The notes under the pieces are model-generated. The model was not told where the DNA came from and did not search any database. It saw only the letters and a program-made list of their open reading frames with translations. A DNA stretch of 43,019 nt, taken from a virus. The DNA lies in UHGV virus genome UHGV-0172637, one strand, 5' to 3'. This document shows, piece by piece, positions 1 through 33,888 of the stretch (positions within the stretch are counted from its first letter, which is position 1; every line of letters begins with the position of its first letter). A program made the position numbers and the translations under genes.

Positions 1-171
1 CATACTATTCTCCTGAGTTTTTATTAGTATCATTATTGTTTTCAGCGCATCACTCGTCTAGTTTCATCGCGCTGATGAGAGGGTAAATTTTACCCCAATT
101 TGTGCATGGGTAAGTAGTAAAACCTGTGCTAAAGGCCGGGGTAATAATAAGGAACGTGGAATCGCGGGCAT

Positions 172-200
172 AAAAAAACCAACCATGAAGGTTGGTTTTT
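172..200 (-). terminator. Rho-independent terminator just 3' of the tRNA-Pro fragment (likely the host tRNA terminator)
   Basis: Inverted repeat AACCAACC (178-185) / GGTTGGTT (191-198) with 5-nt loop, flanked by A-run on plus strand (T-run on minus strand). Confidence 0.5.
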
Positions 201-210
201 CTGGGATTTT

Positions 211-258
211 TGGTCGGCACGAGAGGATTTGAACCTCCGACCCCCGACACCCCATGAC
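211..258 (-). tRNA. Partial tRNA-Pro gene, 3' ~48 nt only (anticodon-arm to CCA end); prophage att core
   Basis: Minus-strand reads ...GTCATGGGGTGTCGGGGGTCGGAGGTTCAAATCCTCTCGTGCCGACCA, matching T-arm/acceptor 3' half of enterobacterial tRNA-Pro as I recall it; sequence 5' of this does not continue as a tRNA (no complementary acceptor-stem 5' strand). Confidence 0.7.
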
Positions 259-451
259 ACCGCTTATAAAACGCTGAGAGCCGCGCAATTGCTGGTATTA
301 GGTACTATTCGCATGTATAAACAAACAGTGCTTTTTTAGCAAAATCTGCTCTATATACATCAATGACTTAGGTGGTGGTTTCTCCCCATGTTTGAATAGT
401 TTCGAAAAGTTGTGTGACATAATGCCAGAACAAACTACTAGAGGCTGGATA

Positions 452-1303
452 ATGAAAAAAAGAACTAAAAAAGGCAGTAACATCCGTTTTCGAGAACACA
501 CTGAGGTCGAGAGGTCTTACATTAGTCTTTATAAGATATTCTGCCGCGCTTGTGAAATTTCTGCAGTCATATCACTGAATCAAAGCGGAATTAAGACCGA
601 CGGCAGGGGGATACGGGCTGCAAATATTTTCACTCGTCAAGTGTTGACTGCGCATAGTCTTAAGAAACTACTGCCAGTACTGCGAAACGGAGATAATCCC
701 GATGATACAGTTTGGGATGTAACCACTATCGCACTTGTGTCCAGAAGTGTGATGGAAAATTTTCAGGCGCTTTTTTATTACGGCACGGAAACGGTCTCGG
801 AAGCGGAGGCTGACTTTCGTTTTCGAATTTTCCAAAAAGACAGAAATGTTAAATGGCGTGATATCAGACTGAAGGCTGGTGAATCTGAAGAATCACTGGA
901 GGAGTTTTTCACTGGCATACCAAAGCAGCAGGAGGAGATAGTGAACCATGAATTCTATAGTTCACTGTCTAAAGAACAAAAGAATAGTCTCAAAAACAGG
1001 GCCGAAATGTATTATACCAAAGCTGAGTTTGAAGCTCGCTGCCCGCGGTTAGCTGATATTGCACTACATCACCAATTACTATCAAATCTAGCCCATCCAT
1101 TGCCACTGGCTATCCATAGGATTGATGAATTTAGCGGTCATGGTTCACCCAGTGAAGCAGACATCTGCTTAGTCATAATATCCCTGAAGGTTGCTACAGA
1201 CTGCCTAATTGCGTCAGTTGAGGGAATGGGCGAAAAATTTGCCGATAGTATCGGTATACTTTATCGGTCAATGATTGAAGAACTCTCCAATTACTCACTT
1301 TGA
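452..1303 (+). CDS. Hypothetical protein, att-proximal accessory gene (283 aa from the RBS-supported ATG)
   Basis: ORF 392-1303 in track; internal ATG at 452 preceded by AGAGG RBS; no motif I recognise; lies between att core and the convergent integrase gene. Confidence 0.5.
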   Translation: MKKRTKKGSNIRFREHTEVERSYISLYKIFCRACEISAVISLNQSGIKTDGRGIRAANIFTRQVLTAHSLKKLLPVLRNGDNPDDTVWDVTTIALVSRSVMENFQALFYYGTETVSEAEADFRFRIFQKDRNVKWRDIRLKAGESEESLEEFFTGIPKQQEEIVNHEFYSSLSKEQKNSLKNRAEMYYTKAEFEARCPRLADIALHHQLLSNLAHPLPLAIHRIDEFSGHGSPSEADICLVIISLKVATDCLIASVEGMGEKFADSIGILYRSMIEELSNYSL

Positions 1304-1396
1304 AATATATACTTTCCTCAACTTCCGACACAGAGCAACCCGTCCAATTTGGTTTGCTCTGCTTTATACTATAGCAATAAAGGGAGTAACTTATTA

Positions 1397-2575
1397 TTAG
1401 CTGGCTTTTATTTCTCCATGTGGAACGACAACCCAGTCGATATGGTTTTGCGTGTAAATTTTAGTTGATTTCGCATCGCTATGTGCCATTCGCCCTTGTG
1501 GATCGATACCCTGCTGATCGAAAAGATGCGCAGCCAGCGCTCTGATTTCGTGAAAGGTTGGTCTTTCGTCCATCGGTAGATTGTCGCATAAACCTAGCTT
1601 GTCACGCGTAGCTGAAAACGACCGACTCAAATAATCCGGCGCAACTTGAGTGGGATGTGAAACCTCTTTGCTGCGTTTAACCTGCCGTTCCGGGAGCCTG
1701 TGAACTATAAATGGACTGGCCACATTATCTCGGCTATCGTCAATTATTCGTTTCAACTCTTCCCCAATAGGTATTGCAACATGTGATGCCTCTTTTTTTT
1801 GCACCTTCTGCCTGTGGATATAGAGAGTCCCATATATGCCATTTTCTGGATGTTCTAACCAAACGCATCCGCATACTCCGTCTTTGGGTTCTTTGATGGA
1901 GTAGCGGATCCTTGATACCTCCAGTCGCGCGTGTGTTGTCTGCAATGCCAAATCCATCGCGCTCCGTAACCATGGTTCAGCTGCACGCCTGATAGCTTTA
2001 AAGTTATCAAGTGAGAGGCGCTGGCGTTTCTTCTCTTCTGTCCTACGCATTTTTTTACGGGTTGCCGGGTTATCGAACATTAGCGATTCATCGACCGCAT
2101 ACGAGAATAGTTTTTTAAGAAAGCTGACTTTCCTGTTTTGTACGTTTGCTGAAGCTTCGGCATGGTAGTGGTTTATATAGGCATTCACATGCTCCAGCTC
2201 AATATCGCAAGCTGGTGTGCTGATGAAGAATTCTTTCACTCTCAGAGCATCGTTGTTCCAATCGTCGAGTGTATTCTGTGAGGGGCGCTCATTCTCAATC
2301 GCCCGCTCCATAATATGATCTACGTGTTCAGCAAATGGTTTTGCTTCCCCCGTTACACCGCCAGATTCACGGACAAGTATTTCTACTGATGGTACATTTG
2401 CAGGCCTCATTCTGAGGTTGTATTCACGGGCTATAGCGATCGCTACAGCCCTGTCTTTACCGATATTCTTTTTTTTCCCAGTTATAAGCGTAAATTTATA
2501 AACGCCGCGATCTTTATCGAATATTAGATATTCGGGTAGATGGCGGTATTCTCTTTTTCTTGGCCTGGCTGCCAT
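1397..2575 (-). CDS. int: Tyrosine recombinase, lambda-type integrase
   Basis: 392 aa; C-terminal catalytic signature HEIRALAAHL...GRMAHSDAKSTKIY (His-x-x-Arg ... His ... Tyr), N-terminal arm-binding-like region; adjacent to att and xis. Confidence 0.92.
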   Translation of the reverse strand: MAARPRKREYRHLPEYLIFDKDRGVYKFTLITGKKKNIGKDRAVAIAIAREYNLRMRPANVPSVEILVRESGGVTGEAKPFAEHVDHIMERAIENERPSQNTLDDWNNDALRVKEFFISTPACDIELEHVNAYINHYHAEASANVQNRKVSFLKKLFSYAVDESLMFDNPATRKKMRRTEEKKRQRLSLDNFKAIRRAAEPWLRSAMDLALQTTHARLEVSRIRYSIKEPKDGVCGCVWLEHPENGIYGTLYIHRQKVQKKEASHVAIPIGEELKRIIDDSRDNVASPFIVHRLPERQVKRSKEVSHPTQVAPDYLSRSFSATRDKLGLCDNLPMDERPTFHEIRALAAHLFDQQGIDPQGRMAHSDAKSTKIYTQNHIDWVVVPHGEIKAS

Positions 2576-2577
2576 GG

Positions 2578-2787
2578 TTAACCCTCACTGATAAGCTGGC
2601 GAACCGTATGATTAACCATTGAGTCGACCCCCCATTTTTCAGACTCGCAGACCCAAACAGATCCGTCTACGATTTTGCCTGTGAGAAGTCCGTTTTCAAC
2701 CCAACGTTTAATGGTTCGATTATCCGGGATCGAGTCTTTGGTAAATTCGCGTTTACCCCACTGACTCGCCTTCATAAGTTTTGCCAT
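2578..2787 (-). CDS. xis: Excisionase (Xis-like DNA-binding protein)
   Basis: 69 aa, immediately upstream of and co-oriented with int; winged-helix-like RTIKRWVENGLL motif typical of excisionases. Confidence 0.75.
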   Translation of the reverse strand: MAKLMKASQWGKREFTKDSIPDNRTIKRWVENGLLTGKIVDGSVWVCESEKWGVDSMVNHTVRQLISEG

Positions 2788-2876
2788 GACAGACTCTCCA
2801 TACAGCCCGGCTGCACCCGGGCTTTAATATAAAACGATTGTGCTTTTAATATATAAAGACTTGCCTAATTGTTTAA

Positions 2877-4115
2877 TTACTTTTTCATCACCTTTTCAGC
2901 AACACCAGCAATTGCCTCAAGTCCATCAAACATTGCTGGTATATTATTTTCATTGTTTTGTATTGGACTAAAAATAAGAGCATCAAAAGAGTCTAAAACT
3001 TTCTCAATAGCAATGTTATTTTTTCTTCTATATTCAACATACCCATCAATGAAAGCACATAAGCTGAGCCTTAGATCAATCTGCATAAGTTGAGTTCTTA
3101 AAGCCTTCGCTTCTAAATATGAAAGTCTGAAAAAATAAATAATTGCCATCTCAATAGTAATAAATGGGAATAGAATGAAGATCGCTGAATAATCTTTAGG
3201 ATATAAATCAGGGAAAGAAAAATGGATTATTACAGCAATCACAGGAGCAATGAATACAGTCCCAAATAAATTTTTATAATTCATTTCAGTTGTAGAAAGC
3301 TCTTTCTCTTTTTTTTCTTTTATTATGTTAAAACCAGAGCTTAACCCAACAAAATTATACTCTGATTTTAAATTTCTCACACGCTCCTCTAGTGCCTTAA
3401 TTTCATCCCTTGATTCATCCACGTATTTTAAATTAGCATCTGCTTCTAGTTTTCCATCTACAATAGCTTTTTTAATGTCATTATAATTATCAGATATTAA
3501 TGATATGGATGCTTTAGTGTCTTTGTTAATTTTATCAATAGCCAAATCTAAGTTGCTAGAAATTTCATCGAGAAACTTCCGTTTGTTTTCGTCGAGGTCT
3601 GATATAAAGTTTCTAGCATCAGTTAGTTTGTTACTGTTTAGTAACCACTTCATAAGTGAAATAGGTAGTTTGTCTCGAATCCATGAAAATTGGTATTTAC
3701 CTTCATTATCCTTGAAAGTGTTTTCTAATAATGTCAATTTGCTGTCTGTGATAAAGTTAGGCGTGATAATGGAACGAGTGCCTGTCCAATAATAGTACTC
3801 GTACAATACTCTTAACAAGGTTGACAAAAAATCAATCTTGTCTTTCTTGTAATCGTCAACTTGAAATTCCATGTGCAACAATATATTGTCTTGATTAAAA
3901 CCTGTATTCTCATCTAAATGTTGTGGGTTGTTATTTATTATTGATATAAAAGTCGACCATGCTGAGTCCAATGTAGTATAGAATAAAGATATGCTATTAT
4001 CTTTCTTTTTGGCGGATTTCTTGGACATTTCTTCAAACCTAATAAGATCTCTACTAATTATAGTATTTGTTTCCTTTATTGAATTAAGTATTTTATTATC
4101 GCTATATAGTCCCAT
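2877..4115 (-). CDS. Hypothetical membrane-anchored protein (coiled-coil region, two C-terminal TM helices), AT-rich accessory gene
   Basis: 412 aa; Lys/Asn/Ile-rich, visibly AT-rich DNA; hydrophobic segments LFGTVFIAPVIAVIIHF and YSAIFILFPFITIEMAIIYFF; heptad-like segment DESRDEIKALEERVRNLKSE. Confidence 0.6.
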   Translation of the reverse strand: MGLYSDNKILNSIKETNTIISRDLIRFEEMSKKSAKKKDNSISLFYTTLDSAWSTFISIINNNPQHLDENTGFNQDNILLHMEFQVDDYKKDKIDFLSTLLRVLYEYYYWTGTRSIITPNFITDSKLTLLENTFKDNEGKYQFSWIRDKLPISLMKWLLNSNKLTDARNFISDLDENKRKFLDEISSNLDLAIDKINKDTKASISLISDNYNDIKKAIVDGKLEADANLKYVDESRDEIKALEERVRNLKSEYNFVGLSSGFNIIKEKKEKELSTTEMNYKNLFGTVFIAPVIAVIIHFSFPDLYPKDYSAIFILFPFITIEMAIIYFFRLSYLEAKALRTQLMQIDLRLSLCAFIDGYVEYRRKNNIAIEKVLDSFDALIFSPIQNNENNIPAMFDGLEAIAGVAEKVMKK

Positions 4116-4193
4116 TTCTATACCTTTTTAAATATTATTATGTTTCATTGAGTGATGAGATATTTTACGATCAATTTTCCGGTTTTGCTTCAT

Positions 4194-4225
4194 AAAATCC
4201 CCACCCTTTCTAAGGAAGGGGATCT
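4194..4225 (-). terminator. Possible terminator separating the early-left operon from the AT-rich accessory gene
   Basis: Minus strand ATCCCC...GGGGAT stem followed by TTTT; long loop, so weak. Confidence 0.3.
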
Positions 4226-4232
4226 AAATCTC

Positions 4233-5060
4233 TTATGGTTTAAATATTCCGATGAAAGTGTCCACTGATTCACACTCGAACTTGCTGATCAGCAAATTGC
4301 GGAATTCATTGGCGATCTCTTCTTCCTGGGCTTCAAGTTGGACGATGCGCAGAACAAAGCAGGGTTCATCGCTGGTCAGCAGGCTGTTACGCAAGCTAAA
4401 ACGGCGTTCGCCCAGACCTTCATACGGTACACATTTGAATTCAAACGCCACAGGCATTACGTCTTTGCTGCTTGCTTCAACGCTTTGCATCAGCGATTTT
4501 TTACCAGCGAAATCACCAGTTTCATGGTCCTGCTGGGTTGCTTGTTGAATGGTGATACGACGCACAGCCTGAGCCGCCTGGGAAATCTGCATCGTATTAC
4601 CATCGGCATCAAACGCGAGCAGGTAGTCACTCCAGTCTTCCAGCCATTCAGCGATTTGCTTTTGCTTCAGACGTTGACCATCGATCTGCAGTAACGCGCG
4701 GAACGGGGCGGTTTTCTTCAGGGTGATTGAAGCAACATTATCGGCGTGACCGGGATTATCCAGGGTGCCGATGTTGAACACTGAACGAGCGGTCATGTTG
4801 TCAGCGTCAATGAAGCAACGGGCTGGCTCGCTGGCGCTGGCGTAACCTTTAGAATAACGTGCGAAGTCGTCAATACTGGTTGTGGTCATTGCGCCACGGA
4901 AGCGGAAACGCTCCAGAGAAAAGCGCTCAAGGCTTTCAACGCCAGTACCTTCTGGCAATAATGCGGTCGGGCAAGCCAGGTCCTGAATATCATTCAGGTG
5001 ATAACCGGAAAGAACCAGGTCTTTGACCTGCTTGAAGGTACCGCTGTCTAACTGAGACAT
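4233..5060 (-). CDS. Phage early protein, possibly YfdQ-like (DUF2303-type)
   Basis: 275 aa ORF in the early-left operon; length and position resemble the yfdP-yfdQ pair of E. coli cryptic prophage CPS-53 (recall only, not verified). Confidence 0.4.
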   Translation of the reverse strand: MSQLDSGTFKQVKDLVLSGYHLNDIQDLACPTALLPEGTGVESLERFSLERFRFRGAMTTTSIDDFARYSKGYASASEPARCFIDADNMTARSVFNIGTLDNPGHADNVASITLKKTAPFRALLQIDGQRLKQKQIAEWLEDWSDYLLAFDADGNTMQISQAAQAVRRITIQQATQQDHETGDFAGKKSLMQSVEASSKDVMPVAFEFKCVPYEGLGERRFSLRNSLLTSDEPCFVLRIVQLEAQEEEIANEFRNLLISKFECESVDTFIGIFKP

Positions 5061-5116
5061 AAAAATTCCTTATTAACTGATGATCAAAGTGGTATCAGTG
5101 AGTTTGTTGTTGCGGA

Positions 5117-5491
5117 TCACTGAGCCGCTTTAAGCTTTCCATCCACCGCGCCAGTGATCCCGAACAGCTGACCCTGATCTTCCTGCAGGATGGTGAGCTT
5201 CCCGCCTTTGTTGACCCACATCGGGGTTTCGGTTGTGTCCTCTTCGGATGCTTTACCACGCGGTGTTGGGGTGCTGTAGTTCAGCTTGTGCTTGATCTTG
5301 ACGCGCTTCTCTTCAACGGAATTACCCATGCGCTCAAAATCAAATGTGAGGACTACTTTGCCTTTGTTGCCGTTGTTCAGAACGCCAAGTGCGGTGGTAT
5401 TAAGTGCTGCCGCGATTTTGTTCATGAACACGCCGGCATCCAGTTCGCCAAGAAAATCTGGCACTACGGTCATGCGGTCATTACTCATGGT
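5117..5491 (-). CDS. Hypothetical early-left protein (124 aa from the RBS-supported start)
   Basis: ORF track gives 5117-5575; internal ATG at 5491 preceded by GAGGG RBS; first gene after a ~500-nt ORF-free leader. Confidence 0.5.
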   Translation of the reverse strand, partial: TMSNDRMTVVPDFLGELDAGVFMNKIAAALNTTALGVLNNGNKGKVVLTFDFERMGNSVEEKRVKIKHKLNYSTPTPRGKASEEDTTETPMWVNKGGKLTILQEDQGQLFGITGAVDGKLKAAQ

Positions 5492-5998
5492 TTTACCCTC
5501 GTTATGGCGGCTGCCACCGCCGAACTTTCTCCATACACAACAGAGAAGGGCACCTGCATTTGTCGGCGACTGCAATCGCCATCCTCTTGCCCTGGTGGAT
5601 TGGGTTATGAGCCCGTCGCCCGGTGATGCCCTTTTCTGTTGTGCCCTGAAAAAGGCTGGCGGTTACCGGACAAATGGGAAAACACCGGGCCGCCAGAACA
5701 GGGAGTTACTTGTTATTGCTTTGGCCTGCTTTTAACCACATCAGGCGCGGTGGTAGGTATCTTCGGGCGGGGTGCTAAGGGGGTGATTAGCCCTTGCCCT
5801 TAACACTCCTGCTGGTTTTGGTATTCCTGGCTTGGGTATCGCCACCAGCTATAGGAATTTGACTACGAGTTGCGGTTAATCAGGCCGCGCCTCTGTTACC
5901 CCTCCCGAAGACACCTGTCAGCTAATCATCCGGTTATTCATATGCCACCGGCGGCTACTTCGTGGGCGTCCTGCCTGTTCGCTGTTTGTTTATTTAAT

Positions 5999-6048
5999 GT
6001 AGGATAACTTACAAAGAAAGGTCAAGAGGAAATGTTGGATAACTTACA
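5999..6048 (-). promoter_or_regulatory. Leftward early promoter/operator region (OL/pL-like): two operator copies flanking a TTGACC -35
   Basis: 16-bp sites TGTAAGTTATCCTACA (6014-5999, minus) and TGTAAGTTATCCAACA (6048-6033, minus); minus-strand TTGACC-18nt-TACATT mirrors the rightward promoter at 6768-6797. Confidence 0.55.
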
Positions 6049-6054
6049 TTGAGG

Positions 6055-6085
6055 GGTGAAAAAAAACCGGGATAACCCGGTTTCC
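6055..6085 (-). terminator. Rho-independent terminator immediately downstream of the repressor gene
   Basis: Stem CCGGG-ATAA-CCCGG followed on the minus strand by a run of 8 T. Confidence 0.7.
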
Positions 6086-6732
6086 TTATAAATCCATTAT
6101 CACTTGTCTTACTAATCCGACCAAACGGCAGTTGCCGTTTACCTCGAGCATCCTGTAGTTGGGATTGAGAGGTACAAGGTATTTAAGCGGACCATCAATG
6201 ACGAATTTTTTTATAGTGGCTTCGTCACTTCCCATTAGCTGAGCAATGACAATTTTACCATTTGCTTGGCTGGCATCTCCAAAGTCAGGTTCTACGACGA
6301 CGAGAGAGCCCTCCGGGATGCTTGGTGCGCCATTTGGGTTAGTCATTGAGTCACCGCGGACTATTAGTGCAAAAGCGCTCTCTGAAACAGCTGCTGAAGT
6401 GTAAACCCAGTCTTGAATGTCTCGTTCCGTTATCGCACCACTATTGGCAGTCCATTCCCCGGCTTGCACCCACGTTAAAACGGGAACTGATCTAATTCCG
6501 AATCTCTGCTCTGGGTTCATTGTTGGCGGTTGTTGTTTCCCGTCATCCTTACCCTCCAGCAACCACTGCGGTGTCTTTTCAAGAGCAGCAGCAAGCGCCT
6601 GAAGGTTCTCACCGCCAGGTTTATAGTCACCAGATTCCCAGCCGGTGATCGTGACGCGGTTTACCCCGACAAGCTTTGCCAGGACAGATTGCGTCATCTT
6701 CAGCTCTTTTCGTCTGCTTCGGATTCGATCAT
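6086..6732 (-). CDS. Prophage repressor, cI/LexA-like (HTH + S24 peptidase domain)
   Basis: N-terminal XRE-type HTH (MTQSVLAKLVGVNRVTITGWESG), C-terminal S24 autopeptidase signature (RGDSM ... K); start taken at ATG 6732 rather than track start 6820. Confidence 0.9.
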
Positions 6733-6797
6733 TCATTTTCATGTAGGCAATCCTACCATTTTCTAATGTAGGAGTGCTTGACCATTTTATGTAAGAT
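6732..6797 (+). promoter_or_regulatory. Rightward early promoter/operator region (OR/pR-like) with three operator-like sites
   Basis: Sites TGTAGGCAATCCTACC (6732-6747), TGTAGGAGTGCTTGAC (6757-6772), TGTAAGATATCCTACT (6780-6795); TTGACC (6768-6773) - 18 nt - TACTAT (6792-6797) upstream of cro-like gene. Confidence 0.6.
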
Positions 6798-6841
6798 ATC
6801 CTACTATTTATGCACTGCATGACCTAACTCCAGAGGGAAAA

Positions 6842-7039
6842 ATGAAAAAGAATGACGTTATCTCTTACTTCGGTGGCGTAGGGAAAACCGCCAAGGCGCT
6901 GAATATCTCCCACGCATCTGTATCGGGCTGGGATGAAGTTATCCCAAAGGGGAGGGCATTTGAGATCCAGGCGCTGACGAAAGGTGATTTGAAAGTTAAC
7001 CAATCCCTTTATGAAAAGCGTAGTCATTCGGCTGCGTGA
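6842..7039 (+). CDS. Cro/YdaS-like HTH regulator
   Basis: 65 aa, divergent from repressor across the operator region; HTH GKTAKALNISHASVSGW; AGAGGG RBS. Confidence 0.8.
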   Translation: MKKNDVISYFGGVGKTAKALNISHASVSGWDEVIPKGRAFEIQALTKGDLKVNQSLYEKRSHSAA

Positions 7040-7067
7040 TTAAAACCACAGAAATTAGGGGACAACC

Positions 7068-7634
7068 GTGGATAAACAACACTGGAAAGTAGAGCGACAA
7101 CCAGCTTGGCTGGTGGCTGCAATCAAAAGAACGATCGCCGAAATGTCGGGTGGGTATGCCGAAGCAGCTGAATGGCTTGGTCTGTACCGCGCTGGAAAAC
7201 TCTCAACGGATGCACTCTATAACCGACTACGTAACGAAGGTGATCAAATTTTCCCGCTTGAGTGGGCGATGGTGCTTCAGGATGCGAGCGGTACTAAGTA
7301 TGTCACCGATGCGATAGCCCGCCGTAGTGGTGGTGTATTCGTTCCGCTGGTGGAAGTAGATGATCTTGATAACGGCGATATCAACCAGCGTCTGATGGAG
7401 TCAATCGAATGGATTGGCAAACACTCGCAGTACCTGCGTAAGGCAACCGCCGACGGGGTTATTGATCCGGCAGAACGTGAGCAGATTGAAGAGAACAGTT
7501 ATCAGGTAATGGCTAAGTGGCAGGAGCATTTGACGCTGCTATTCCGTGTTTTCTGCGCGCCAGAAAAGAGTGACGCCCGCGAGTGTGCAGCTCCGGGCGC
7601 CTTGGCGAACAACTCTTCGAGTATGGAGAAATAA
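7068..7634 (+). CDS. CII-like/YdaT-like early regulatory protein
   Basis: 188 aa, GTG start with RBS, immediately after cro-like gene; family assignment from memory of Rac ydaS-ydaT arrangement. Confidence 0.45.
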   Translation: MDKQHWKVERQPAWLVAAIKRTIAEMSGGYAEAAEWLGLYRAGKLSTDALYNRLRNEGDQIFPLEWAMVLQDASGTKYVTDAIARRSGGVFVPLVEVDDLDNGDINQRLMESIEWIGKHSQYLRKATADGVIDPAEREQIEENSYQVMAKWQEHLTLLFRVFCAPEKSDARECAAPGALANNSSSMEK

Positions 7635-7806
7635 TCCGCATGAGCAGTTTAACGGCTTTTAACCGTCTACCGCAACTCAGGATGATCCCGGTTTCGGGTA
7701 CTCCGTTGTTTCGGTATGAACGCAGATTATCAAACCGCTGGGTTCCGTGTAACCACAGTAGGGCGGTTTCAATTGTGGGGGTCTATAACCGGAGGGCAAA
7801 ACGCCT

Positions 7807-7986
7807 GTGCGCGAACTTAACCGAAGGTTCAAAGACCACCGCGGAGTGTCTGTCCGTGTTATCCGCTGGGAACCAGAAACACAACGCGTTATCTACCTGC
7901 GTGATGGCTACCCGCACGAATGCTTCAGCCCACTTGAGCATTTCAGGCAAAAGTTCAGGGAGATAACGGACGATCATGAGCACTAA
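7807..7986 (+). CDS. Small hypothetical protein (59 aa, GTG start)
   Basis: Not in ORF track (below its size cutoff); GGAGGG 10 nt upstream of GTG; fills gap before replication gene and overlaps its start by 11 nt. Confidence 0.3.
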   Translation: MRELNRRFKDHRGVSVRVIRWEPETQRVIYLRDGYPHECFSPLEHFRQKFREITDDHEH

Positions 7987-8833
7987 ATTAACCGGCTACG
8001 TATGGGATGGTTGCGCGGCGTCGGGCATGAAGTTGTCTAGTGTCGCGATCATGGCTCGCCTCGCTGATTTCAGCAGCGATGAGGGAGTGTGCTGGCCGTC
8101 CATTGAAACTATTGCTCGCCAGCTTGGCGCAGGGCCGAGCACTATCAGAACGGCAATCGCAAAGCTTGAAAAAGATGGCTGGCTCACGCGTACACAGCGC
8201 CGTAATGGTAACCGTAATGCGTCGAACGTGTACCGCCTGAATGTGGCGAAACTTCAGGCTGCCGCATTTTCTCAACTGTCAGATTCTGACACGTCAAAAT
8301 CTGACGCATCAAATTTTGACGCCTCAAAAACTGACCCGTCGAAATCTGGCAAAAACGGCGGTTTTGACCCGTCAGAATCTGGCGGGGATCCGTCAGTAAA
8401 ATCAAAACAAGATCCACAAGTAACTTCAAAACCCTCTTGTCCGGTTGCGGCGCAACCAGACCCTGAAGTCGTGATTACTGATCAGGCAATTTTGGTTCTG
8501 ACCCATTTGAACCAGATCAGCGGATCCCGGTATCAGAAATCAAAAACATCCCTGGAGAACATCCGTGCCCGACTGCGTGAGGGATACAGCGTTGCAGACC
8601 TGCAACTTGTTATCGACCTGAAGCATGAGCACTGGCACGAGAACGACGAGCAGTACCAGTACATGCGCCCGGAAACGCTGTTCGGCCCGAAGAAATTCGA
8701 GAGCTATCTGCAAAGCGCTACCCGCTGGGAGCAGAAGGGACGGCCTAAACGTGCTGACTGGGGAGCGAAAAAGCGCGATGTGATGGCTTTTGGTCCGGTT
8801 GAAACAACGATTCCAGAGGGGTTCAGAGGATGA
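7976..8833 (+). CDS. Replication initiation protein (lambda O-like) with internal origin iterons
   Basis: N-terminal winged-helix region, low-complexity middle encoded by the iterons, conserved phage C-terminal domain. Confidence 0.75.
   Translation: MSTKLTGYVWDGCAASGMKLSSVAIMARLADFSSDEGVCWPSIETIARQLGAGPSTIRTAIAKLEKDGWLTRTQRRNGNRNASNVYRLNVAKLQAAAFSQLSDSDTSKSDASNFDASKTDPSKSGKNGGFDPSESGGDPSVKSKQDPQVTSKPSCPVAAQPDPEVVITDQAILVLTHLNQISGSRYQKSKTSLENIRARLREGYSVADLQLVIDLKHEHWHENDEQYQYMRPETLFGPKKFESYLQSATRWEQKGRPKRADWGAKKRDVMAFGPVETTIPEGFRG
8285..8402 (+). repeat. Origin iterons: about six direct repeats of ~15-18 bp (consensus TGACNCNTCAAAAWC) followed by an AT-rich stretch
   Basis: tctgacacgtcaaaatc / tgacgcatcaaatttt / tgacgcctcaaaaac / tgacccgtcgaaatc / ttgacccgtcagaatc / ccgtcagtaaaatc read directly in sequence. 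Confidence 0.75.
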
Positions 8834-9711
8834 CGTTAAACAAATATTGCCAGGCGCTGGTGGCACTACGTAGCCAACCAGCCCACGAATTGAAAGAAGT
8901 TGGCGATCAGTGGCGGACACCGGATCTGCTTTTTTGGGGTATCAACGCGCTATTTGGTCCATTAGTTCTGGACTTGTTTGCTGACGACGACAACGCGAAG
9001 TGCCCGGCATGGTACACCGCCGAAGATAACGCGCTGACACAGAACTGGTCTGAACGTCTGGATGAACTGGGCGGCGCGGCTTTTGCCAATCCTCCATATA
9101 GCCGCTCCCAGTATCACGACAAGCAGGCGATCACGGGTATGACACACATCATGAATCACACCATGGACATGCGTGAAAGAGGTGGTCGCTATATTTACCT
9201 GGTGAAGTCTGCCACAAGTGAAACATGGTGGCCGGAAGATGCCGATCACATCATGTTTATTCGTGGTCGTATTGGGTTCGATCTGCCTGTGTGGTTTGTA
9301 CCTGCTGACGAAAAACAGAAACCCACCAGCGCGTTTTTTGCCGGTGCCATAGCTGTATTCGATAAGTCGTGGCGGGGTGAGCGGTTCAGCTATATCAACC
9401 GCACAGAACTGGAGGAAAAAGGGCGGGCATTTATGGCTTTGGCTCAATTCGCCGTTGGTAAAGAGCAAACAATTGCAATGCAGGCAGCCAGGGAACCAGC
9501 AGCAACACCGGAAACTGAGTCACGAATCTGGCCTCTCGAGGTTGGTCTGGTGTTTAACCAGGTGGAAGGCGTTGATGTATTGAGCGAGGCCCAGCAGAAC
9601 AAACTGAAAGCCAACATCAATCAACTCTGGCTGGAACGAACGGCCACCAGCGAAATTATCACAATTGCGCGTGGTCTTGTTGGCAGCATGCAGGGGGTAA
9701 CCCATGCGTGA
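8830..9711 (+). CDS. Phage DNA N6-adenine methyltransferase (Dam-like) with C-terminal extension
   Basis: NPPY catalytic motif (FANPPYSRS); position in replication/nin region typical of phage orphan MTases. Confidence 0.75.
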   Translation: MTLNKYCQALVALRSQPAHELKEVGDQWRTPDLLFWGINALFGPLVLDLFADDDNAKCPAWYTAEDNALTQNWSERLDELGGAAFANPPYSRSQYHDKQAITGMTHIMNHTMDMRERGGRYIYLVKSATSETWWPEDADHIMFIRGRIGFDLPVWFVPADEKQKPTSAFFAGAIAVFDKSWRGERFSYINRTELEEKGRAFMALAQFAVGKEQTIAMQAAREPAATPETESRIWPLEVGLVFNQVEGVDVLSEAQQNKLKANINQLWLERTATSEIITIARGLVGSMQGVTHA

Positions 9712-11638
9712 GATTATCGTTGATAACTTTGCTGGTGGCGGTGGTGCATCAACGGGTATTGAACTGGCGATCGGACGCAGCGTGGATATTGCGATCAACC
9801 ACGACGAAAACGCCATTGCGATGCACAAGACGAACCACCCTGACACACTGCATTACTGTGAATCCGTATTTGACGTGGATCCGGTAGCCGCCACCGGCGG
9901 CAATCCTGTTGGCCTGGCATGGTTTAGCCCAGACTGCCGACACTTCTCAAAGGCCAAAGGCGCAAAGCCTGTGAAAAAAGAGATACGCGGTCTGGCCTGG
10001 ATCGTTCTGCGTTGGGCACTGGCGAAGCGACCGCGCGTGATGATGCTGGAGAACGTGGAAGAGTTTAAAACGTGGGGACCGCTGCTGGCCGATGAAATGC
10101 GTCCAGACCCTGCCCGCACTGGCGAAACATTCAATGCTTTTGTCGGCATGCTTTCCACTGGCATTCCTGCCGATCACCCGGCACTGGCGGAGGTCTGCGA
10201 ATTTCTTGCTATTGATCCTGGCAGCACGCAGGCCAAACAGCTGGTGGAAGGGCTTGGATATGATGTTGATTATCGCGAACTGCGCGCGTGTGATTACGGC
10301 GCGCCGACGATCCGCAAACGCTTCTTCATGGTTATGCGCTGCGATGGTTGCCCTATTCAGTGGCCTGTTGTAACCCATGGGGATCCCAAGTCACTGGAGG
10401 TGCAGAGCGGCAGGCTGATGCCATGGCGTACCGCTGCGGAATGTATCGACTGGAATGTTCCGGCTCTGTCCATCTTCGACCGCAAAAAACCGCTGGCGGA
10501 GAACACTCTGAAGCGGATCGCACGCGGCATACAGCGCTTTGTTATCGAAAGTGCGTCGCCGTTTATCGTGAAGTGCAACCACACGAGCTCAAAAAATGCG
10601 TATGACGCTTTTCGCGGACAGTCACTGAATGAGCCATTACAGACCATTACTAAAAAACTCGGCTACGCGTTAGCCGTTCCACACCTTACAAAATTCCGCA
10701 CTGGCGCAACCGGGCAGCCCGTTACCGAACCTGTTCCGACAGTAACCGCTGGCACGTCAAAACGCCCGGGCGGGAACGGGCATGCTCTCGGGATTGTTGA
10801 GGCTGCATTGACACCATTCCTGGCGGGTAATGGTGGTAGTGAATACCAGGCTAAACCGCGCCCGCTGAATAAACCTGCTCATACCATTCTGAAGCAATCC
10901 CGAGCCTGTCTTGTTGCGCCAGTGATAGCCCGCCAGTTTGGGGCCAGCGTCGGCCACCGTGCAGACGAACCGAGCGCAACCATCACCGCTGGTGGTGGAG
11001 GTAAATCTCAACTGGTAACGCCTACGCTGATTCAGATGGGTTATGGCGAACGACCTGGACAAGAACCGCGTGTGCTGCGACTGGATAACCCGCTGGGGAC
11101 CGTTACTGCAGGCGGAAATAAATTTGCGACGGTGAGCGCGTTCCTGGCGAAACACTACGGCGGTAACTATACGGGGCCGGGTGTCAGTATGGATGAACCC
11201 GCGCATTCAGTGACCACTGTCGACCATCATGCGGTAGTTGCCTCTCATCTGGTGAAACTGCGTGGAACATGCCGCGATGGGCAACGCCTTGATGTGCCAA
11301 TGCCAACAATCACTGCTGGTGGCCAACACGTGGGTGAGGTACGCACATTTCTCGAGACGTATTGCGGGGAAAGTGACGATGAATGGCTGGTAACGATCGA
11401 TGGGGTTAAATACCAGATCGTTGATATCGGAATGCGCATGTTGCAGCCGCATGAACTCTACAAAGCGCAGGGCTTCCCGGATGGTTACGTTATTGATCAG
11501 GACTACCGTGGAAATCGCTATGCAAAAGATAAGCAGGTAGCCCGCTGCGGTAATGCGGTACCACCACCATTCGCCAGGGCGCTGGTTGAGGCAAATCTTC
11601 CGGAACTGTGTGCAGTGCAACAGCAGGAGGTGGCATGA
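9704..11638 (+). CDS. DNA cytosine-5 methyltransferase, large form with repeated target-recognition-like segments
   Basis: Motif I FAGGGGAS, Cys motif SPDCRHFS, ENV motif MLENVEEF, RKRFFMV, C-terminal RCGNAV; five repeats of a P-x-P-T-[VI]-T-A-G-G-like segment in the variable region. Confidence 0.75.
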   Translation: MREIIVDNFAGGGGASTGIELAIGRSVDIAINHDENAIAMHKTNHPDTLHYCESVFDVDPVAATGGNPVGLAWFSPDCRHFSKAKGAKPVKKEIRGLAWIVLRWALAKRPRVMMLENVEEFKTWGPLLADEMRPDPARTGETFNAFVGMLSTGIPADHPALAEVCEFLAIDPGSTQAKQLVEGLGYDVDYRELRACDYGAPTIRKRFFMVMRCDGCPIQWPVVTHGDPKSLEVQSGRLMPWRTAAECIDWNVPALSIFDRKKPLAENTLKRIARGIQRFVIESASPFIVKCNHTSSKNAYDAFRGQSLNEPLQTITKKLGYALAVPHLTKFRTGATGQPVTEPVPTVTAGTSKRPGGNGHALGIVEAALTPFLAGNGGSEYQAKPRPLNKPAHTILKQSRACLVAPVIARQFGASVGHRADEPSATITAGGGGKSQLVTPTLIQMGYGERPGQEPRVLRLDNPLGTVTAGGNKFATVSAFLAKHYGGNYTGPGVSMDEPAHSVTTVDHHAVVASHLVKLRGTCRDGQRLDVPMPTITAGGQHVGEVRTFLETYCGESDDEWLVTIDGVKYQIVDIGMRMLQPHELYKAQGFPDGYVIDQDYRGNRYAKDKQVARCGNAVPPPFARALVEANLPELCAVQQQEVA

Positions 11639-12021
11639 AACTTGTGCTCCCGTTCCCTCCGAGCGTGAACACTTACTGGCGCGCCCCTAACAAGGGGCCG
11701 CTGGCCGGTCGTCACCTCATTAGCGCTGATGGTCGTAAATACCAGAGCGCTGCCTGCGTGGCGATCATTGAGCAATTACGACGTCTCCCGAAGCCATCGA
11801 CTGAACTGGCAGCGGTAGAAATCACTCTGTACCCGCCGGATGCGCGCCGTCGGGATATCGATAATTACAACAAAGCCCTGTTTGACGCGCTGACGCATGC
11901 GGGTGTCTGGGAAGACGACAGCCAGATTAAGCGCATGCTGGTGGAATGGGGACCCGTTGTGCCGAAAGGGCGGGTAGAGATAACGATCAGCAGATATGAA
12001 CCGGCGGGTGCAGCCGCCTGA
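11635..12021 (+). CDS. rusA: Holliday junction resolvase RusA
   Basis: 128 aa from ATG 11635 (AGGAGG RBS); MKLVLPFPPSVNTYWR N-terminus and DxD-containing core typical of RusA. Confidence 0.8.
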   Translation: MKLVLPFPPSVNTYWRAPNKGPLAGRHLISADGRKYQSAACVAIIEQLRRLPKPSTELAAVEITLYPPDARRRDIDNYNKALFDALTHAGVWEDDSQIKRMLVEWGPVVPKGRVEITISRYEPAGAAA

Positions 12022-12034
12022 TATGGAGAAAAGT

Positions 12035-12721
12035 ATGAGCCAGTTAATCGTGAATGGTGTAGTAACAATGTCCAGCCGTGATATTGCGGATCTGGTTCAG
12101 AGTAAACACAGTGACGTGAAACGCTCGGCTGAGCGTCTTGTTGCTGCGGGAATTTTAACCGCGCCGTTGGCGCAGTTCGATTTTGAGCATAACGGTAATG
12201 TGTACCAGGAGTATCGTTTTAACAAACGCGACTCTCTGGTGATTGTTGCCAGATTGTCACCTGAATTTACCGCCGCGGTCGTCGATCGCTGGCAGGAACT
12301 GGAAGAAGGGCTGAGTGTCAGTGTTCCACGCTCATTGCCGGAAGCGCTTCGTCTGGCTGCTGATTTAGCCGAGCAGAAAGAGCAACTGACCATCCAGCTG
12401 GAAGCTGCGGCGCCAAAAGTGGAGTTTGTTGATCGTTATTGCTCTGCAAAAGGCTCCATGTCATTCCGGCAGGTAGCCAAATTGCTTAACGCCAAAGAAA
12501 CCGAGTTCCGCCTGTTCCTCATTGAACGCAATATCCTGTATCGCCTCGGCGGCACACTTACCCCCATGGCGCAGCATATTTCCGCGGGAAGATTTGAAGT
12601 TAAGACGGGAACATCGAGTACATCTAACCACGCATTCAGCCAGACGCGTTTCACTGCCAAGGGAGTACGCTGGATTGGTGGTTTGTGGGCTGAATATATT
12701 GCAGGGGGACAGGCGGCGTGA
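12035..12721 (+). CDS. Phage antirepressor / regulatory protein (Rha N-terminal domain + KilA-C-like domain)
   Basis: N-terminal QLIVNGVVTMSSRDIADLV... Rha-type signature; GGAG RBS before ATG 12035. Confidence 0.6.
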   Translation: MSQLIVNGVVTMSSRDIADLVQSKHSDVKRSAERLVAAGILTAPLAQFDFEHNGNVYQEYRFNKRDSLVIVARLSPEFTAAVVDRWQELEEGLSVSVPRSLPEALRLAADLAEQKEQLTIQLEAAAPKVEFVDRYCSAKGSMSFRQVAKLLNAKETEFRLFLIERNILYRLGGTLTPMAQHISAGRFEVKTGTSSTSNHAFSQTRFTAKGVRWIGGLWAEYIAGGQAA

Positions 12722-13730: not shown

Positions 13731-14147
13731 GTGCGTGATATGCAGAAAGTTTTAGATTTATGGGGGGCGTGGGCCGCGAGCGATTCATGCCATGTTGATT
13801 ACTCTCCGATTGCTGCGGGCTTCAAAGGGTTACTGCCGCAAACAAGTAAAACTCGGATTCAATGCACTGATGATGATGGGCTGGTAATAGAGGGGTGTAT
13901 GTCGCGCCTTAGCAGAAAGAGGCCATACGATTATCAACTATTGGTCGTGCACTATATCTACCGGGTGTCCAAGCGCCAAATGGCAAAGCACCGAAAGAAA
14001 AGTGAAAAGCAGATCCGAATCGAAATGCAACTGGCGGAAGGGTTTATTGAAGGGTGTCTGTCTATGCTGGATATCCCCCTTGAGATGGATCTGGTTGTAT
14101 ATGTGGAAAATCATCAAAAAAGCACTAGTGCGGTCCGCACTTTTTGA
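13731..14147 (+). CDS. Late-gene antiterminator Q
   Basis: 138 aa; N-terminal VLDLWGAWAA... and Cys cluster resemble lambdoid Q-family antiterminators; located just upstream of late region. Confidence 0.7.
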   Translation: MRDMQKVLDLWGAWAASDSCHVDYSPIAAGFKGLLPQTSKTRIQCTDDDGLVIEGCMSRLSRKRPYDYQLLVVHYIYRVSKRQMAKHRKKSEKQIRIEMQLAEGFIEGCLSMLDIPLEMDLVVYVENHQKSTSAVRTF

Positions 14148-14254
14148 TATAAGGTGTTAAGAGTGGTCACTAAGACACGGACTTAAAACGCTTTCTAACC
14201 TCGCTGCGGCGGGGTTTTCTGTTATGATAGCTTTCTTTCTATAGGTGAGTTGTC

Positions 14255-14917
14255 ATGGATATAATTCATTTACTGGAAGTGCTTAATCCTCTCGAAAACG
14301 TTGTAACTGTCAAAATCGACAACGACAAAAACTTGTTTACGATGTTTGGCGATTTATTAATTACATTAGCCCCTGCAGTGATAGCGGGTATTGCGATGGT
14401 GGTTTCTTATAAGCAATTCAAAACGAGCTTACACAGGCAAAGTGAGCAATTTGAACTGGGAATAAAGCAACAAATTAATACATTAAAAATTAATACACAA
14501 CTTGCTACTGAAGTTGAATTGATGAAAGAGGATTGCAAGGCATTAAGAGAAACTTATGTTAGCTATTTAGATGTCACTTCATTACTTTATAGAAGCCAAT
14601 GCGATTTTAAAAATTATAGTGGTCAATTTGATGATAATGCAATTAAGAGTCGCAATATAGCACATGAAAATATAATGACCTACAGTAGTAAGTTTTTGCA
14701 AACTAGAATTTTATTATTCTCTTATCTTAATCTTGAAATTCCCGAAGAGAAAAAACTACAAGAATGTATTATTGCTATTGGTGACTGTGCATTTAATGGA
14801 GACGGAACTGGGAAAGATATTGGAAAGTTACAAGGTGATGGTGCGACTCTCTGCTTTGAGTTAATAAAGAGGAAACGCCAGGCAATCTTCAGTTTGGTAG
14901 AAACCATTACCGAATAA
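14255..14917 (+). CDS. Hypothetical single-pass membrane protein, AT-rich accessory gene
   Basis: 220 aa; TM helix LLITLAPAVIAGIAMVVSY; visibly AT-rich; RBS TAGGTGAG; sits between Q and the lysis genes. Confidence 0.6.
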   Translation: MDIIHLLEVLNPLENVVTVKIDNDKNLFTMFGDLLITLAPAVIAGIAMVVSYKQFKTSLHRQSEQFELGIKQQINTLKINTQLATEVELMKEDCKALRETYVSYLDVTSLLYRSQCDFKNYSGQFDDNAIKSRNIAHENIMTYSSKFLQTRILLFSYLNLEIPEEKKLQECIIAIGDCAFNGDGTGKDIGKLQGDGATLCFELIKRKRQAIFSLVETITE

Positions 14918-15093
14918 ATACTGAAATTTCTTGCCTCTGTTGATAGAGGTATCCCGCTGTGAAAATGGGCGGCTGGTGGGTGTTAGCGCACCCGGCCAGC
15001 CATCAGCTCATGCTTTCAGGTCACAAGCTAACCAAGGCCCACTGCTTTAGCGCAAAAGCAACGTGAGCCTATCAGAGTTACGCTTACTAATCT

Positions 15094-16146
15094 ATGAAAA
15101 ATACTGTAAAAATAAACAGTGTTGAGTTAATCAACGCTGACAGCCTGCATTACGTCGCCACCCTCCCGGATAACTCTATTGATCTGATAGTTACGGATCC
15201 GCCTTACTTCAAAGTGAAGCCCAACGGCTGGGACAACCAATGGAAGGGGGACGAGGACTACTTACGCTGGCTTGATAGCTGTCTGGCTGAGTATGCTCGC
15301 GTTCTTAAACCTGCTGACAGCATTTACCTGTTTTGTGGTCACCGACTGGCCTCAAATATAGAGATTATGATGCGTGCCCGGTTCAACGTTTTGAATCACA
15401 TCATTTGGGCAAAACCATCGGGTCGCTGGAATGGATGTAACAAAGAAAGCCTGCGTGCGTACTTTCCATCTACGGAACGGATTTTGTTTGCTGAGCTCTA
15501 TCTTGGGCCGTACACAGGTAAAGAGGATGTTTACGAAAGGAAAAGCACAGAGCTAAAGCAGCACATTATGACGCCGCTGATTGATTACTTCCGTAATGCC
15601 CGTGAATCACTGGGTGTCAGCTCGAAAGAAATAGCTGAGGCAACCGGAAAGAAAAACATGGCGTCACACTGGTTCGGTGCAAGCCAATGGCAACTACCAA
15701 ATGAAGTGGACTATAGAAAATTGCAGGAACTGTTCACTCGGATCGCTATCGATAAGCACATTCAGCAGAAGCTTGAACATCCTCACCACCAGCTGATAGC
15801 TACCTATCAGTCATTAAACCGCAAGTATTCAGAATTGCTGGAGGAATACAAAACCCTCCGGCGCTGCTTTTCTGTTTCCGCTCTTGTTCCGTATACCGAC
15901 GTATGGACGCATAAACCTGTTCAGTTTTATCCAGGCAAACATCCATGCGAAAAACCTGCCGACATGCTGAAGCAGATCATTAGCGCCAGCAGCAGGCCGG
16001 GGGATATTGTTGCCGATTTCTTTATGGGCTCTGGTTCAACTGTGAAAGCAGCAATAGAACTTGGCCGTCGGGCGATCGGCGTAGAACTGGAGGAAGACAG
16101 GTTTATACAGACCACCGAAGAGGTGGAAAAACTGAAAAAATCATAA
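15094..16146 (+). CDS. DNA methyltransferase, beta-class (N6-adenine or N4-cytosine)
   Basis: DPPY motif near N-terminus (LIVTDPPYF) and SAM-binding FFMGSGST near C-terminus (beta-class motif order); third MTase in the prophage. Confidence 0.7.
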   Translation: MKNTVKINSVELINADSLHYVATLPDNSIDLIVTDPPYFKVKPNGWDNQWKGDEDYLRWLDSCLAEYARVLKPADSIYLFCGHRLASNIEIMMRARFNVLNHIIWAKPSGRWNGCNKESLRAYFPSTERILFAELYLGPYTGKEDVYERKSTELKQHIMTPLIDYFRNARESLGVSSKEIAEATGKKNMASHWFGASQWQLPNEVDYRKLQELFTRIAIDKHIQQKLEHPHHQLIATYQSLNRKYSELLEEYKTLRRCFSVSALVPYTDVWTHKPVQFYPGKHPCEKPADMLKQIISASSRPGDIVADFFMGSGSTVKAAIELGRRAIGVELEEDRFIQTTEEVEKLKKS

Positions 16147-17751: not shown

Positions 17752-18195
17752 ATGACTACACGGAATGATGTTATGTCAGAAGTTGCAGCGGAGCTAGCCG
17801 AGCAGACTTGGCCTGATTTTTATCCAAAAGGTGTTCCCCCAAAAACGGCTGTGGATGCCGAGGGTGAGTTTTATCGTTTGGTTAGAGCTAACCCCCCGAC
17901 TCCAAATTGTTTCCTTTCTACCCATGAAGAGTATCCGAATAGACATAAAAAATGTCGTGGAGAAGCTCTTCAGTGCGTATATGGCACATCTTTTTTTTCA
18001 GAAGAAAGAGGTGCTACAGATGCAAAGGCTAAGTTTCCAGCGGCGTTAGGTGATCGTACCGTCGCTAAAGGTAACGTAATGCCATTCATGGGGGTCATGA
18101 AAAAGACTTTTGCGGATCCTGCTCACTATACAATATGGCTTACGGTAAATTGTTCTATCCATGAGCATTTTGCTTGTTTAGGAGAAGGCGAATGA
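17752..18195 (+). CDS. Hypothetical protein A of two-gene cassette (Cys/His-rich, possible metal-binding)
   Basis: 147 aa; C68-x6-C75 and C134-x2-H-x-H-x2-C142 patterns; no recognisable enzymatic motif; stop overlaps start of next gene (ATGA). Confidence 0.55.
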   Translation: MTTRNDVMSEVAAELAEQTWPDFYPKGVPPKTAVDAEGEFYRLVRANPPTPNCFLSTHEEYPNRHKKCRGEALQCVYGTSFFSEERGATDAKAKFPAALGDRTVAKGNVMPFMGVMKKTFADPAHYTIWLTVNCSIHEHFACLGEGE

Positions 18196-32005: not shown

Positions 32006-32757
32006 GCTTAAACAGTGATTATCAGAAACTTGAGCCGGGCAATGTTGTCCGGCTTTTTGATGTCGATGGCACCGCATTTGGTGTTTCCGACGTTCTCCGC
32101 TTCCACGCCCACAATATTGCCCACACTGCCGATGAAATCGTCGCTGCTGGTGGAGATGAAAATAAGCTACCGGCGAAATCGATCTGGTGGCAGGGACAGG
32201 AATATAAAGCCTGGCCCTGCCAGATAGAGGGTATTGAGACGGCGACCGACGGGACTAGCGCGCAGCCAACGCTCTCGGTCGCTAACCTGGATAGTTCCAT
32301 TACGGCGCTGTGTCTTGTTTATGATGACCTGCTGCAGGCGAAGGTCACCATTCATGACACGCTGGCGCAGTATCTGGATGCGGAAAACTATCCGGAGGGT
32401 AACCCGTCGGCGGATCCTCAGCAGGAAAAGCTGAAGGTGTTTTACATAGACGCCAAGAGCACTGAAACCAACGAAGTGGTGGCGTTTACGTTGTCCAGCC
32501 CGATGGACCTGCAGGGGCTGATGATTCCGACACGCCAGCTACATTCGCTTTGTACCTGGTGTATCCGTAACAAATACCGCTCCGGAGATGGATGCGACTA
32601 TGCCGGGACGCGCTATTTCGACAAGCACAACAACCCGGTTAACGATCCGTCGCTCGATAAATGCCCCGGTACGCTCACTGCGTGCAAGTTGCGACATGGC
32701 GAGGGGAACGAGTTGCCGTTCGGTGGTTTTCCGGGCACATCCCTGATCAGGAGCTGA
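32002..32757 (+). CDS. L: Minor tail protein L
   Basis: 251 aa; C-terminal Cys cluster (CTWC...C...C) as in lambda gpL. Confidence 0.85.
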   Translation: MSLNSDYQKLEPGNVVRLFDVDGTAFGVSDVLRFHAHNIAHTADEIVAAGGDENKLPAKSIWWQGQEYKAWPCQIEGIETATDGTSAQPTLSVANLDSSITALCLVYDDLLQAKVTIHDTLAQYLDAENYPEGNPSADPQQEKLKVFYIDAKSTETNEVVAFTLSSPMDLQGLMIPTRQLHSLCTWCIRNKYRSGDGCDYAGTRYFDKHNNPVNDPSLDKCPGTLTACKLRHGEGNELPFGGFPGTSLIRS

Positions 32758-32758
32758 T

Positions 32759-33469: not shown

Positions 33470-33500
33470 CCTTTTACAATATCAAAAAGGGGATAGGGAC

Positions 33501-33836: not shown

Positions 33837-33854
33837 GTCGATTCTAATCTTCAA

Positions 33855-33877: not shown

Positions 33878-33888
33878 TTGGAGTTAAC

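Follow-up and report, generated by a model that had tools for sequence, protein, structure and literature searches.

Does a truncated tRNA gene next to a phage integrase mark the chromosomal end of a prophage and, if so, where is the other end? This question is raised by a stretch of 43,019 nucleotides from virus genome UHGV-0172637 (the window, hereafter). The initial annotation of this DNA, made from the letters alone, had proposed that the left junction of a prophage lies inside a tRNA-Pro gene, and that the right junction is either located beyond the window or has been lost. We conclude, with a probability of about 96%, that a 43-kb lambda-like prophage is inserted site-specifically into the proL gene of Citrobacter braakii, between narP and yejM. 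The proposed left junction is borne out by a fragment matching proL at 48/48 positions, an intact proL at the other end of the element, and an empty site in C. braakii ATCC 51113.

A displaced 3' part of proL at the left end

The (+) strand of the window reads TGGTCGGCACGAGAGGATTTGAACCTCCGACCCCCGACACCCCATGAC at 211-258, and the reverse complement of this stretch is G29 to A76 of a 77-nt tRNA-Pro(GGG), i.e. the last 48 nt of the molecule including the anticodon GGG and the CCA end. On the (-) strand, the displaced proL fragment consists of the third base of the 5' anticodon-stem strand, the anticodon, the variable loop, the T arm, the 3' acceptor strand, and CCA. It is identical at all 48 positions to proL in the lysogen scaffold described below, in C. 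braakii ATCC 51113, and in E. coli K-12; shuffled controls gave no chance match (n=100). The estimate that only the 3' ~48 nt of the gene are present was accurate, given that the tRNA part measures exactly 48 nt. The interval originally assigned, 211-263, holds for 211-258 and has to be shortened at its right end, where 259-263 (ACCGC) lie outside the tRNA and form the start of the phage arm. In line with the absence of an intact gene at 211-258, no complete tRNA was called in the window by ARAGORN, or by Rfam at the gathering score, and an Rfam search of positions 100-420 at E<=10 returned no tRNA match; low-threshold hits in this region were sub-threshold chance matches only, arising from the terminator hairpin or the T arm. 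No further copy of the 48-nt core was detected within the window with up to 3 mismatches allowed, which agrees with the earlier inspection by eye of the right end. Lacking its 5' half and a promoter, the fragment at 211-258 is non-functional. Expression of the fragment as a small RNA was considered and rejected, as a simple scan shows no promoter able to transcribe it.

The start codon of narP, which encodes a response regulator, occupies positions 1..3 on the (-) strand, and the gene runs leftward out of the window; on the scaffold (locus L006, 12573-13220) its product carries Response_reg and GerE domains, and the ccm operon lies further leftward. Given that narP starts at 3..1, positions 1-203 are host chromosome. 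The adjoining att identity block, 204-258, is a 55-bp exact direct repeat common to the other prophage end. It comprises the 48 tRNA bases and 7 nt downstream of CCA, and the identity does not extend by a single base to the right of 258. Strand exchange must fall within this block, which is the integrase-proximal junction, or attL in the lambda convention.

The right junction and the unoccupied site

A scaffold with both prophage ends was found via exact-protein matches to the integrase and to the SRAP peptidase, which is encoded by the last gene of the window (42301-42969). This 230-kb metagenome scaffold is 100% identical to window positions 1-12575 and 99.98% identical (2 mismatches) to 32301-43019, and a contig of a second sample matches the window at 100% over 40877-43019. 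Given that two bases in 10.7 kb differ, we infer, rather than observe, that scaffold and window belong to one genome. When the numbering of the window is extended along the scaffold, the second core copy is found at extended 43240-43294, 220 nt past the window end, and intact proL at extended 43247-43323, 228 nt past the window's last base (both read from near-identical metagenome sequence). This gene, located between the SRAP gene and yejM, is the one tRNA-Pro(GGG) that ARAGORN calls in this interval of the scaffold, and its tRNA is 77/77 identical to that of the empty site and to K-12 proL. The two core copies are 55/55 identical and in direct orientation, and their spacing of 43,036 bp is the length of the prophage unit. 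To the right of proL, the scaffold continues with yejM, followed by yejL, yejK, and rplY.

Given that a second core and an intact proL are located just past the window end, the prophage runs out of the window and its junction has not been lost; of the two possibilities initially envisaged, extension beyond the window was correct and loss of the right junction was not. Likewise, the direct repeat and the intact tRNA-Pro gene anticipated elsewhere in the genome were both located, 43,036 bp to the right and on a near-identical scaffold, with the difference that the repeat spans 55 bp, not 48.

Among species representatives, only Citrobacter braakii ATCC 51113 matches a 24-mer from the left flank, and window positions 1-170 are not covered in any E. 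coli genome. In ATCC 51113, narP, the terminator, proL, and yejM follow each other uninterrupted, thus providing the unoccupied site in a related strain with which the annotation had suggested comparing this locus. Window 1-258 is exact in this strain, and the bases that follow there are those of extended 43295 onward. The flanks of window and scaffold are 99.1% (6,021 nt) and 99.5% (1,979 nt) identical to ATCC 51113, which is same-species divergence, and the host locus is narP-proL-yejM of the Citrobacter braakii chromosome. Joining the left part of attL to the right part of attR, with the core counted once, yields exactly the empty site, attB. Conservative site-specific integration leaves just this signature, which confirms the reading of 211-258 as a partial duplicate created by such an event. 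The locus shows that proL is still functional after integration of the prophage.

Two short metagenome contigs (L007 and L008) also carry the prophage and begin inside the 55-bp core, at window positions 205 and 229. Assemblies that break off at the att repeat would produce such ends, and they are therefore evidence neither for nor against excision.

Host-type and phage-type terminators

The terminator initially noted at 172-200 is confirmed by RNA folding on the tRNA strand, which yields a hairpin of 12-13 bp, and by its presence in the empty site. This intrinsic terminator of proL on the (-) strand has the structure A7-CCAACC-ATGAA-GGTTGG-T5, and its hairpin is bidirectional. A simple consensus terminator scan did not call it, apparently for want of a free T-run, as the T tract is paired with the A tract. 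The C. braakii empty site has exactly this sequence, and E. coli K-12 has a nearly identical one downstream of proL; the structure at 172-200 is the host's own proL terminator, now apart from the functional tRNA gene. The regenerated tRNA gene is followed by CCAGCC-GTAACA-GGCTGG, and comparison with the empty site shows this second terminator to be phage-borne. Past CCA and through the terminator, the phage-borne and host sequences are 90% alike over 91 nt.

Arms of the attachment site and a variable gene beside it

The integrase-proximal att arm occupies 259-451, and its part from 259 to ~390 is conserved with the integrase: it is 92-93% identical in E. coli prophages and 78% in phage Eeyore, despite differing adjacent cargo. 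A candidate IHF site is located at 358-370 (+), where CATCAATGACTTA agrees at 12/13 positions with WATCAANNNNTTR. It is the single match to the IHF consensus and is weak alone, given a background of ~1 per kb; the sequence is conserved in Eeyore and in the E. coli prophages, and we keep it only as a conserved candidate because the match is statistically weak. It precedes a candidate arm-type integrase site at 382-388 (+), CTCCCCA (TTCCCCA in Eeyore), which corresponds in motif and orientation to three sites in the far arm. There, TTCCCC(A/G) is repeated three times with an exact 11-bp period at extended 43162, 43173, and 43184, i.e. 50-78 nt from the core; the background of the TTCCCC motif is 0.6 sites per kb. 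The CCCC cores are kept in 8/8 aligned arms from different phages, and the spacers vary. By analogy with lambda, we regard the TTCCCC triplet and CTCCCCA as putative arm-type Int sites, and 358-370 as a putative IHF site; given that one attP-type contig from IMG/VR (L019) has no clear CCCC triplet, the assignment of arm sites is not universal.

Between the arm and int, a gene of 283 codons (452-1303, (+)) is inserted, whose product has no match in Pfam, PHROG, NCBIfam, or PADLOC. The gene is present at the same position in E. coli EC20-4B-2; E. coli 3CM carries a different, 1.75-kb gene there and Eeyore none. As the gene is kept, replaced, or absent among relatives, we regard this position as a variable cargo slot.

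Integrase and gene content of the prophage

The lambda-type integrase noted 1.1 kb from the fragment is encoded by an open reading frame of 392 codons at 1397-2575 (-), which is transcribed towards the junction and separated from the tRNA fragment by 1,139 nt. An arm-binding domain is present (Arm-DNA-bind_1, PF09003; 25.5 bits against a cut-off of 22), and Phage_int_SAM_1 also scores above its cut-off; the catalytic Phage_integrase domain scores 21.8, below the curated cut-off of 27.1. In comparison with lambda Int structures, residues 4-360 align, which is near full length (E=1.5e-12), and the N-terminus of lambda Int has its counterpart in residues 1-56. In a multiple alignment that includes lambda Int, the catalytic-site residues K257, H342, R345, and H365 are invariant; Y374 is found at H365+9, the spacing of lambda Int, and R217 aligns one column off lambda R212. 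Directly upstream of int, at 2578-2787 (-), a 69-aa open reading frame weakly matches the PHROG excisionase family phrog_629 (E=6e-4). Its position is that of xis in lambda and of a small open reading frame in Eeyore, and it is a candidate for the excisionase gene.

The lambdoid prophage body spans 259-43019 and continues for 220 nt past the window to the second core copy. It encodes a CI-type repressor (HTH and S24 domains), Cro, RusA, and three DNA methyltransferases, as well as lysozyme, a gpA-type large terminase, a lambda-family portal, and a ClpP-capsid fusion. The tail genes specify a lambda tail tube, a tape measure, tail proteins L and I, and gpJ. The element is a complete-looking lambdoid prophage.

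Several details of the gene content deserve mention in their own right. ClpP-type protease and major capsid domains (PF00574 and PF25209) are combined in one 686-aa open reading frame at 23934-25994 (+). The methyltransferases are encoded within 8830-11638 and 15094-16146 (+), and comprise a Dam-like protein of 293 aa, a C5 DNA_methylase of 644 aa encoded directly downstream, and an N6_N4_Mtase of 350 aa near the lysis genes. A 412-aa open reading frame at 2877-4115 (-), flanked by the xis candidate and a DUF2303 gene, lies in an island of 31% GC, compared to ~45-58% in the rest of the prophage; its only match is phrog_9373 (unknown function), PADLOC returned no match for it, and it is possibly a moron or defence gene. 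Inserts of low GC content (38-41%) break up the late operon at 14001-15000, 18001-19000, and 34001-35000. The insert that separates tail gene I from gpJ carries a gene for a UPF0257 (PF06788) protein at 34534-35262 (+), and is probably another moron. At the right end, a truncated S24/UmuD-like open frame of 104 aa (41986-42300, (+)) adjoins the SRAP peptidase and neighbours a class I methyltransferase (41166-41894) and a DinI-like region; this cargo cluster is SOS-related and mosaic with e14-like E. coli prophages.

Relatives at proL and relic modules at other sites

Prophages at proL are also found in E. coli. At one end, the order is yejO, a native CCAACC-type terminator, the fragment, the arm, variable cargo, and int, and at the other, a phage-type terminator, intact proL, and yejM; in E. 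coli LP50-1, both prophage ends are present, ~42 kb apart. The integrase is 89% identical to that of the E. coli 3CM prophage, 77% to that of Eeyore, and 92% to that of the IMG/VR contig L020. In the isolated phages Eeyore (PP925821) and Flotzy (PP925827), the far arm, the core, and the near arm are contiguous beside the integrase, and L020 has the same attP layout with phage ORFs on either side. The attP layout predicted for the present phage is thus found in free relatives (Eeyore, Flotzy, and the IMG/VR contigs L018 and L020). For the phage itself, an attP of 655 nt was reconstructed, and IMG/VR contains no match to the 66-nt joint expected in it. Common to the present prophage, Eeyore, Flotzy, and the E. 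coli proL prophages are the CCCC triplet, the CCAGCC/GGCTGG terminator, the tRNA-Pro 3' part, and the proximal arm. The Eeyore and E. coli relatives differ from the prophage studied here in their host species, and Eeyore differs further by having no cargo between attP and int, a tRNA identity that is 2 nt shorter, and other tail and accessory genes.

A degenerate attP pattern, which is not strictly attP-specific, retrieved 6 contigs from IMG/VR, and only L018, L019, and L020 among them are attP-type. L022 begins at the joint and is uninformative. In L021 and L023, a gene for an MFS-type transporter runs into a CCAGCC/GGCTGG terminator, followed by a tRNA-Pro fragment; the integrase beside this fragment is ~78% identical to ours in L021 (1-1736) and fragmented in L023 (1-509). 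We regard the two contigs as probable attL junctions from a different genus of enterobacteria, in which the native proL terminator resembles the phage-borne one.

The module consisting of the SRAP gene, the CCCC-triplet arm, the phage-type terminator, and the tRNA-Pro 3' part is also present as a relic inside prophages integrated at other sites: in the icd-integrated prophage of E. coli AH01 (L003, 8813-9081), in a decayed prophage array at thrW of E. coli AR_0128 (L014, 1501-1807, and L017, 8209-8290), and in Gifsy-2 at pncB-pepN (L012, 2501-2827, corresponding to NC_010393 44008-44334). The tRNA part of the Gifsy-2 relic has an internal deletion. The AR_0128 relic is annotated by PGAP as an 82-nt tRNA-Pro and is not called by ARAGORN; its 5' half is a diverged proL copy with a 5-nt insertion. 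We considered this 82-nt "tRNA-Pro" as a secondary integration target and rejected it, as it lies within the decayed thrW array and lacks an ARAGORN call.

Discussion

The organization of the locus indicates how it most likely arose. The attP of the phage carries its own version of the 48 nt with which the tRNA ends, together with 7 further bases and a terminator, and the tyrosine integrase exchanged strands somewhere within the 55-bp identity, most likely in the 7-nt anticodon loop (the "anticodon-centred" sublocation). The 5' part of the host tRNA gene and its promoter were thereby joined to the phage-borne 3' part and the phage-borne terminator. In this way, a proL identical at 77/77 positions was regenerated at the far end, 228 nt beyond the window, and the host's original 3' part with its native terminator was left behind as the dead fragment at 211-258. 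To the right of the window end, this scheme predicts GGATTTTTGGTCGGC...CATGAC, then GGTGCGCTACCAGGCTGCGCTACGTGCCG, and then yejM. Within the block, the phage and host sequences do not differ, which leaves no polymorphism to mark the exact exchange point. The limits of the identity offer some guidance: the tRNA identity ends with ...CATG in Eeyore, with ...CATGAC in the present prophage, and with ...CATGACG in the E. coli prophages, so that the block starts at C31, G29, and C28, respectively, and all three endpoints lie on the 5' border of the anticodon stem or loop. In class A sites, the identity by definition starts in the anticodon stem or loop and continues up to the tDNA 3' end (PMC4383910), and in anticodon-centred sites, a 7-nt overlap lies enclosed by the symmetric anticodon stem and the remaining identity only rebuilds the gene (PMC4383910; bioRxiv 10.1101/2020.11.02.365908). 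As the identity begins at the anticodon stem/loop, the present site belongs to this known class, and we infer that exchange took place in the anticodon loop.

A tRNA fragment near an integrase could also be a relic half-att module within a mosaic prophage, with no chromosomal junction at this place. Such relics do occur, as exemplified by AH01 (icd), AR_0128 (thrW), and Gifsy-2, and given that the same tRNA-Pro fragment is found in them, the combination of fragment and nearby integrase proves no junction without an empty-site comparison. Here, this comparison tells against a relic: window 1-258 corresponds base for base to the unoccupied C. braakii site and has host narP at its left, and the relics carry the CCAGCC/GGCTGG terminator, whereas 172-200 is of the host type CCAACC/GGTTGG. 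A relic origin of the fragment is refuted by the empty-site comparison, and we consider its probability to be close to nil. It is likewise highly improbable that the 43 kb between the repeats represent two elements in tandem at proL. Arrays at tRNA genes are known (Islander statistics, PMC4383910), and some E. coli genomes have three proL-like places; however, the window contains no internal core copy (<=3 mismatches), one integrase was identified, at the junction, and the genes follow a single colinear lambdoid order of typical size.

A different question is whether the junction, though real, belongs to a locked-in and defective prophage with a non-working att or Int/Xis, in which case the fragment would be the fossil of an old insertion. 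This could account for the failure to find the exact attP in IMG/VR as an excised or circular form, and would agree with the weak Xis candidate and with the truncated S24/UmuD-like frame at the right end. We nevertheless judge it unlikely, as the core copies are identical at 55/55 positions, Int is full length with all catalytic residues, and every main lambdoid module is present in long open frames. In addition, near relatives are viable phages, and the prophage is 99.98-100% identical across several independent samples, which suggests recent spread.

Site-specific integration into proL places the element among well-described systems. Similar to lambda, the integrase has N-terminal arm-binding, core-binding, and catalytic domains with the catalytic residues present, a small open reading frame occupies the position of xis, int is transcribed towards att, and three tandem repeats located 50-78 nt from the core, which resemble P'1-P'3, are accompanied by an IHF-like site. 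There are also differences: the integrase is only 29% identical to lambda Int, the target is a tRNA gene and not the gal-bio intergenic attB, and the identity block measures 55 bp compared to 15 bp in lambda. Moreover, the triple repeat lies on the int-distal arm, whereas it overlaps the int end in lambda, and the present attP contains a terminator hairpin between the triple repeat and the core, as well as a cargo gene between arm and int. A further close counterpart is provided by Islander-type class A elements (Williams 2002; Hudson et al. 2015), which have a regenerated tDNA at one end, a displaced direct 3' fragment at the other, a tyrosine integrase inside, and identity from the anticodon region to the 3' end. 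We see no essential difference from these elements; in our case, the identity runs 7 nt past CCA. The displaced tDNA fragment, the regenerated tDNA with its direct repeat, the empty site, and the integrase expected under the Campbell/Islander model are all present, and the contiguous attP is found in relatives; the element is a standard tDNA-integrated lambdoid prophage, i.e. textbook biology.

The choice of target has precedents. In Salmonella, proL has been reported as an island site occupied by the phage remnant SPI-12 (a review statement, PMC10373206), and in Klebsiella, the tRNA-Pro gene pro2A serves as an integration site (bioRxiv 10.1101/2020.11.02.365908). SPI-12 shares its target gene proL with the present prophage (PMC10373206), and differs in being a degraded island of 6-16 kb; the two are set side by side by description only. 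Our literature search found no report of a prophage at proL with yejO.

How a phage may acquire such an attachment site is a further point that the relatives bring up. We tentatively propose that the far arm, consisting of the terminator and the tRNA-Pro 3' part, might be a piece of an enterobacterial proL locus picked up by imprecise excision and kept as a portable module, an origin that we consider possible and less than probable. Several observations would fit: the phage-borne terminator is 90% like that of the host over 91 nt, the CCAGCC/GGCTGG type appears native beside proL in other hosts (L021 and L023), and the icd and thrW relics still carry diverged, full-length tRNA-Pro-like sequence. 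Each integration, moreover, exchanges the native terminator of the tRNA for that of the phage. If this proposal were true, the phage family would preserve recognizable stages in the emergence of a tRNA-type attP.

These results do not challenge current understanding, and their value lies mainly in annotation. The boundaries of the prophage are now fixed exactly by the core copies at 204-258 and extended 43240-43294, and the relic modules indicate that genome scans in which a tRNA fragment is found beside an integrase need an empty-site comparison. For the phages themselves, proL emerges as an integration site common to one integrase family in Citrobacter and E. coli, and probably in other enterobacteria.
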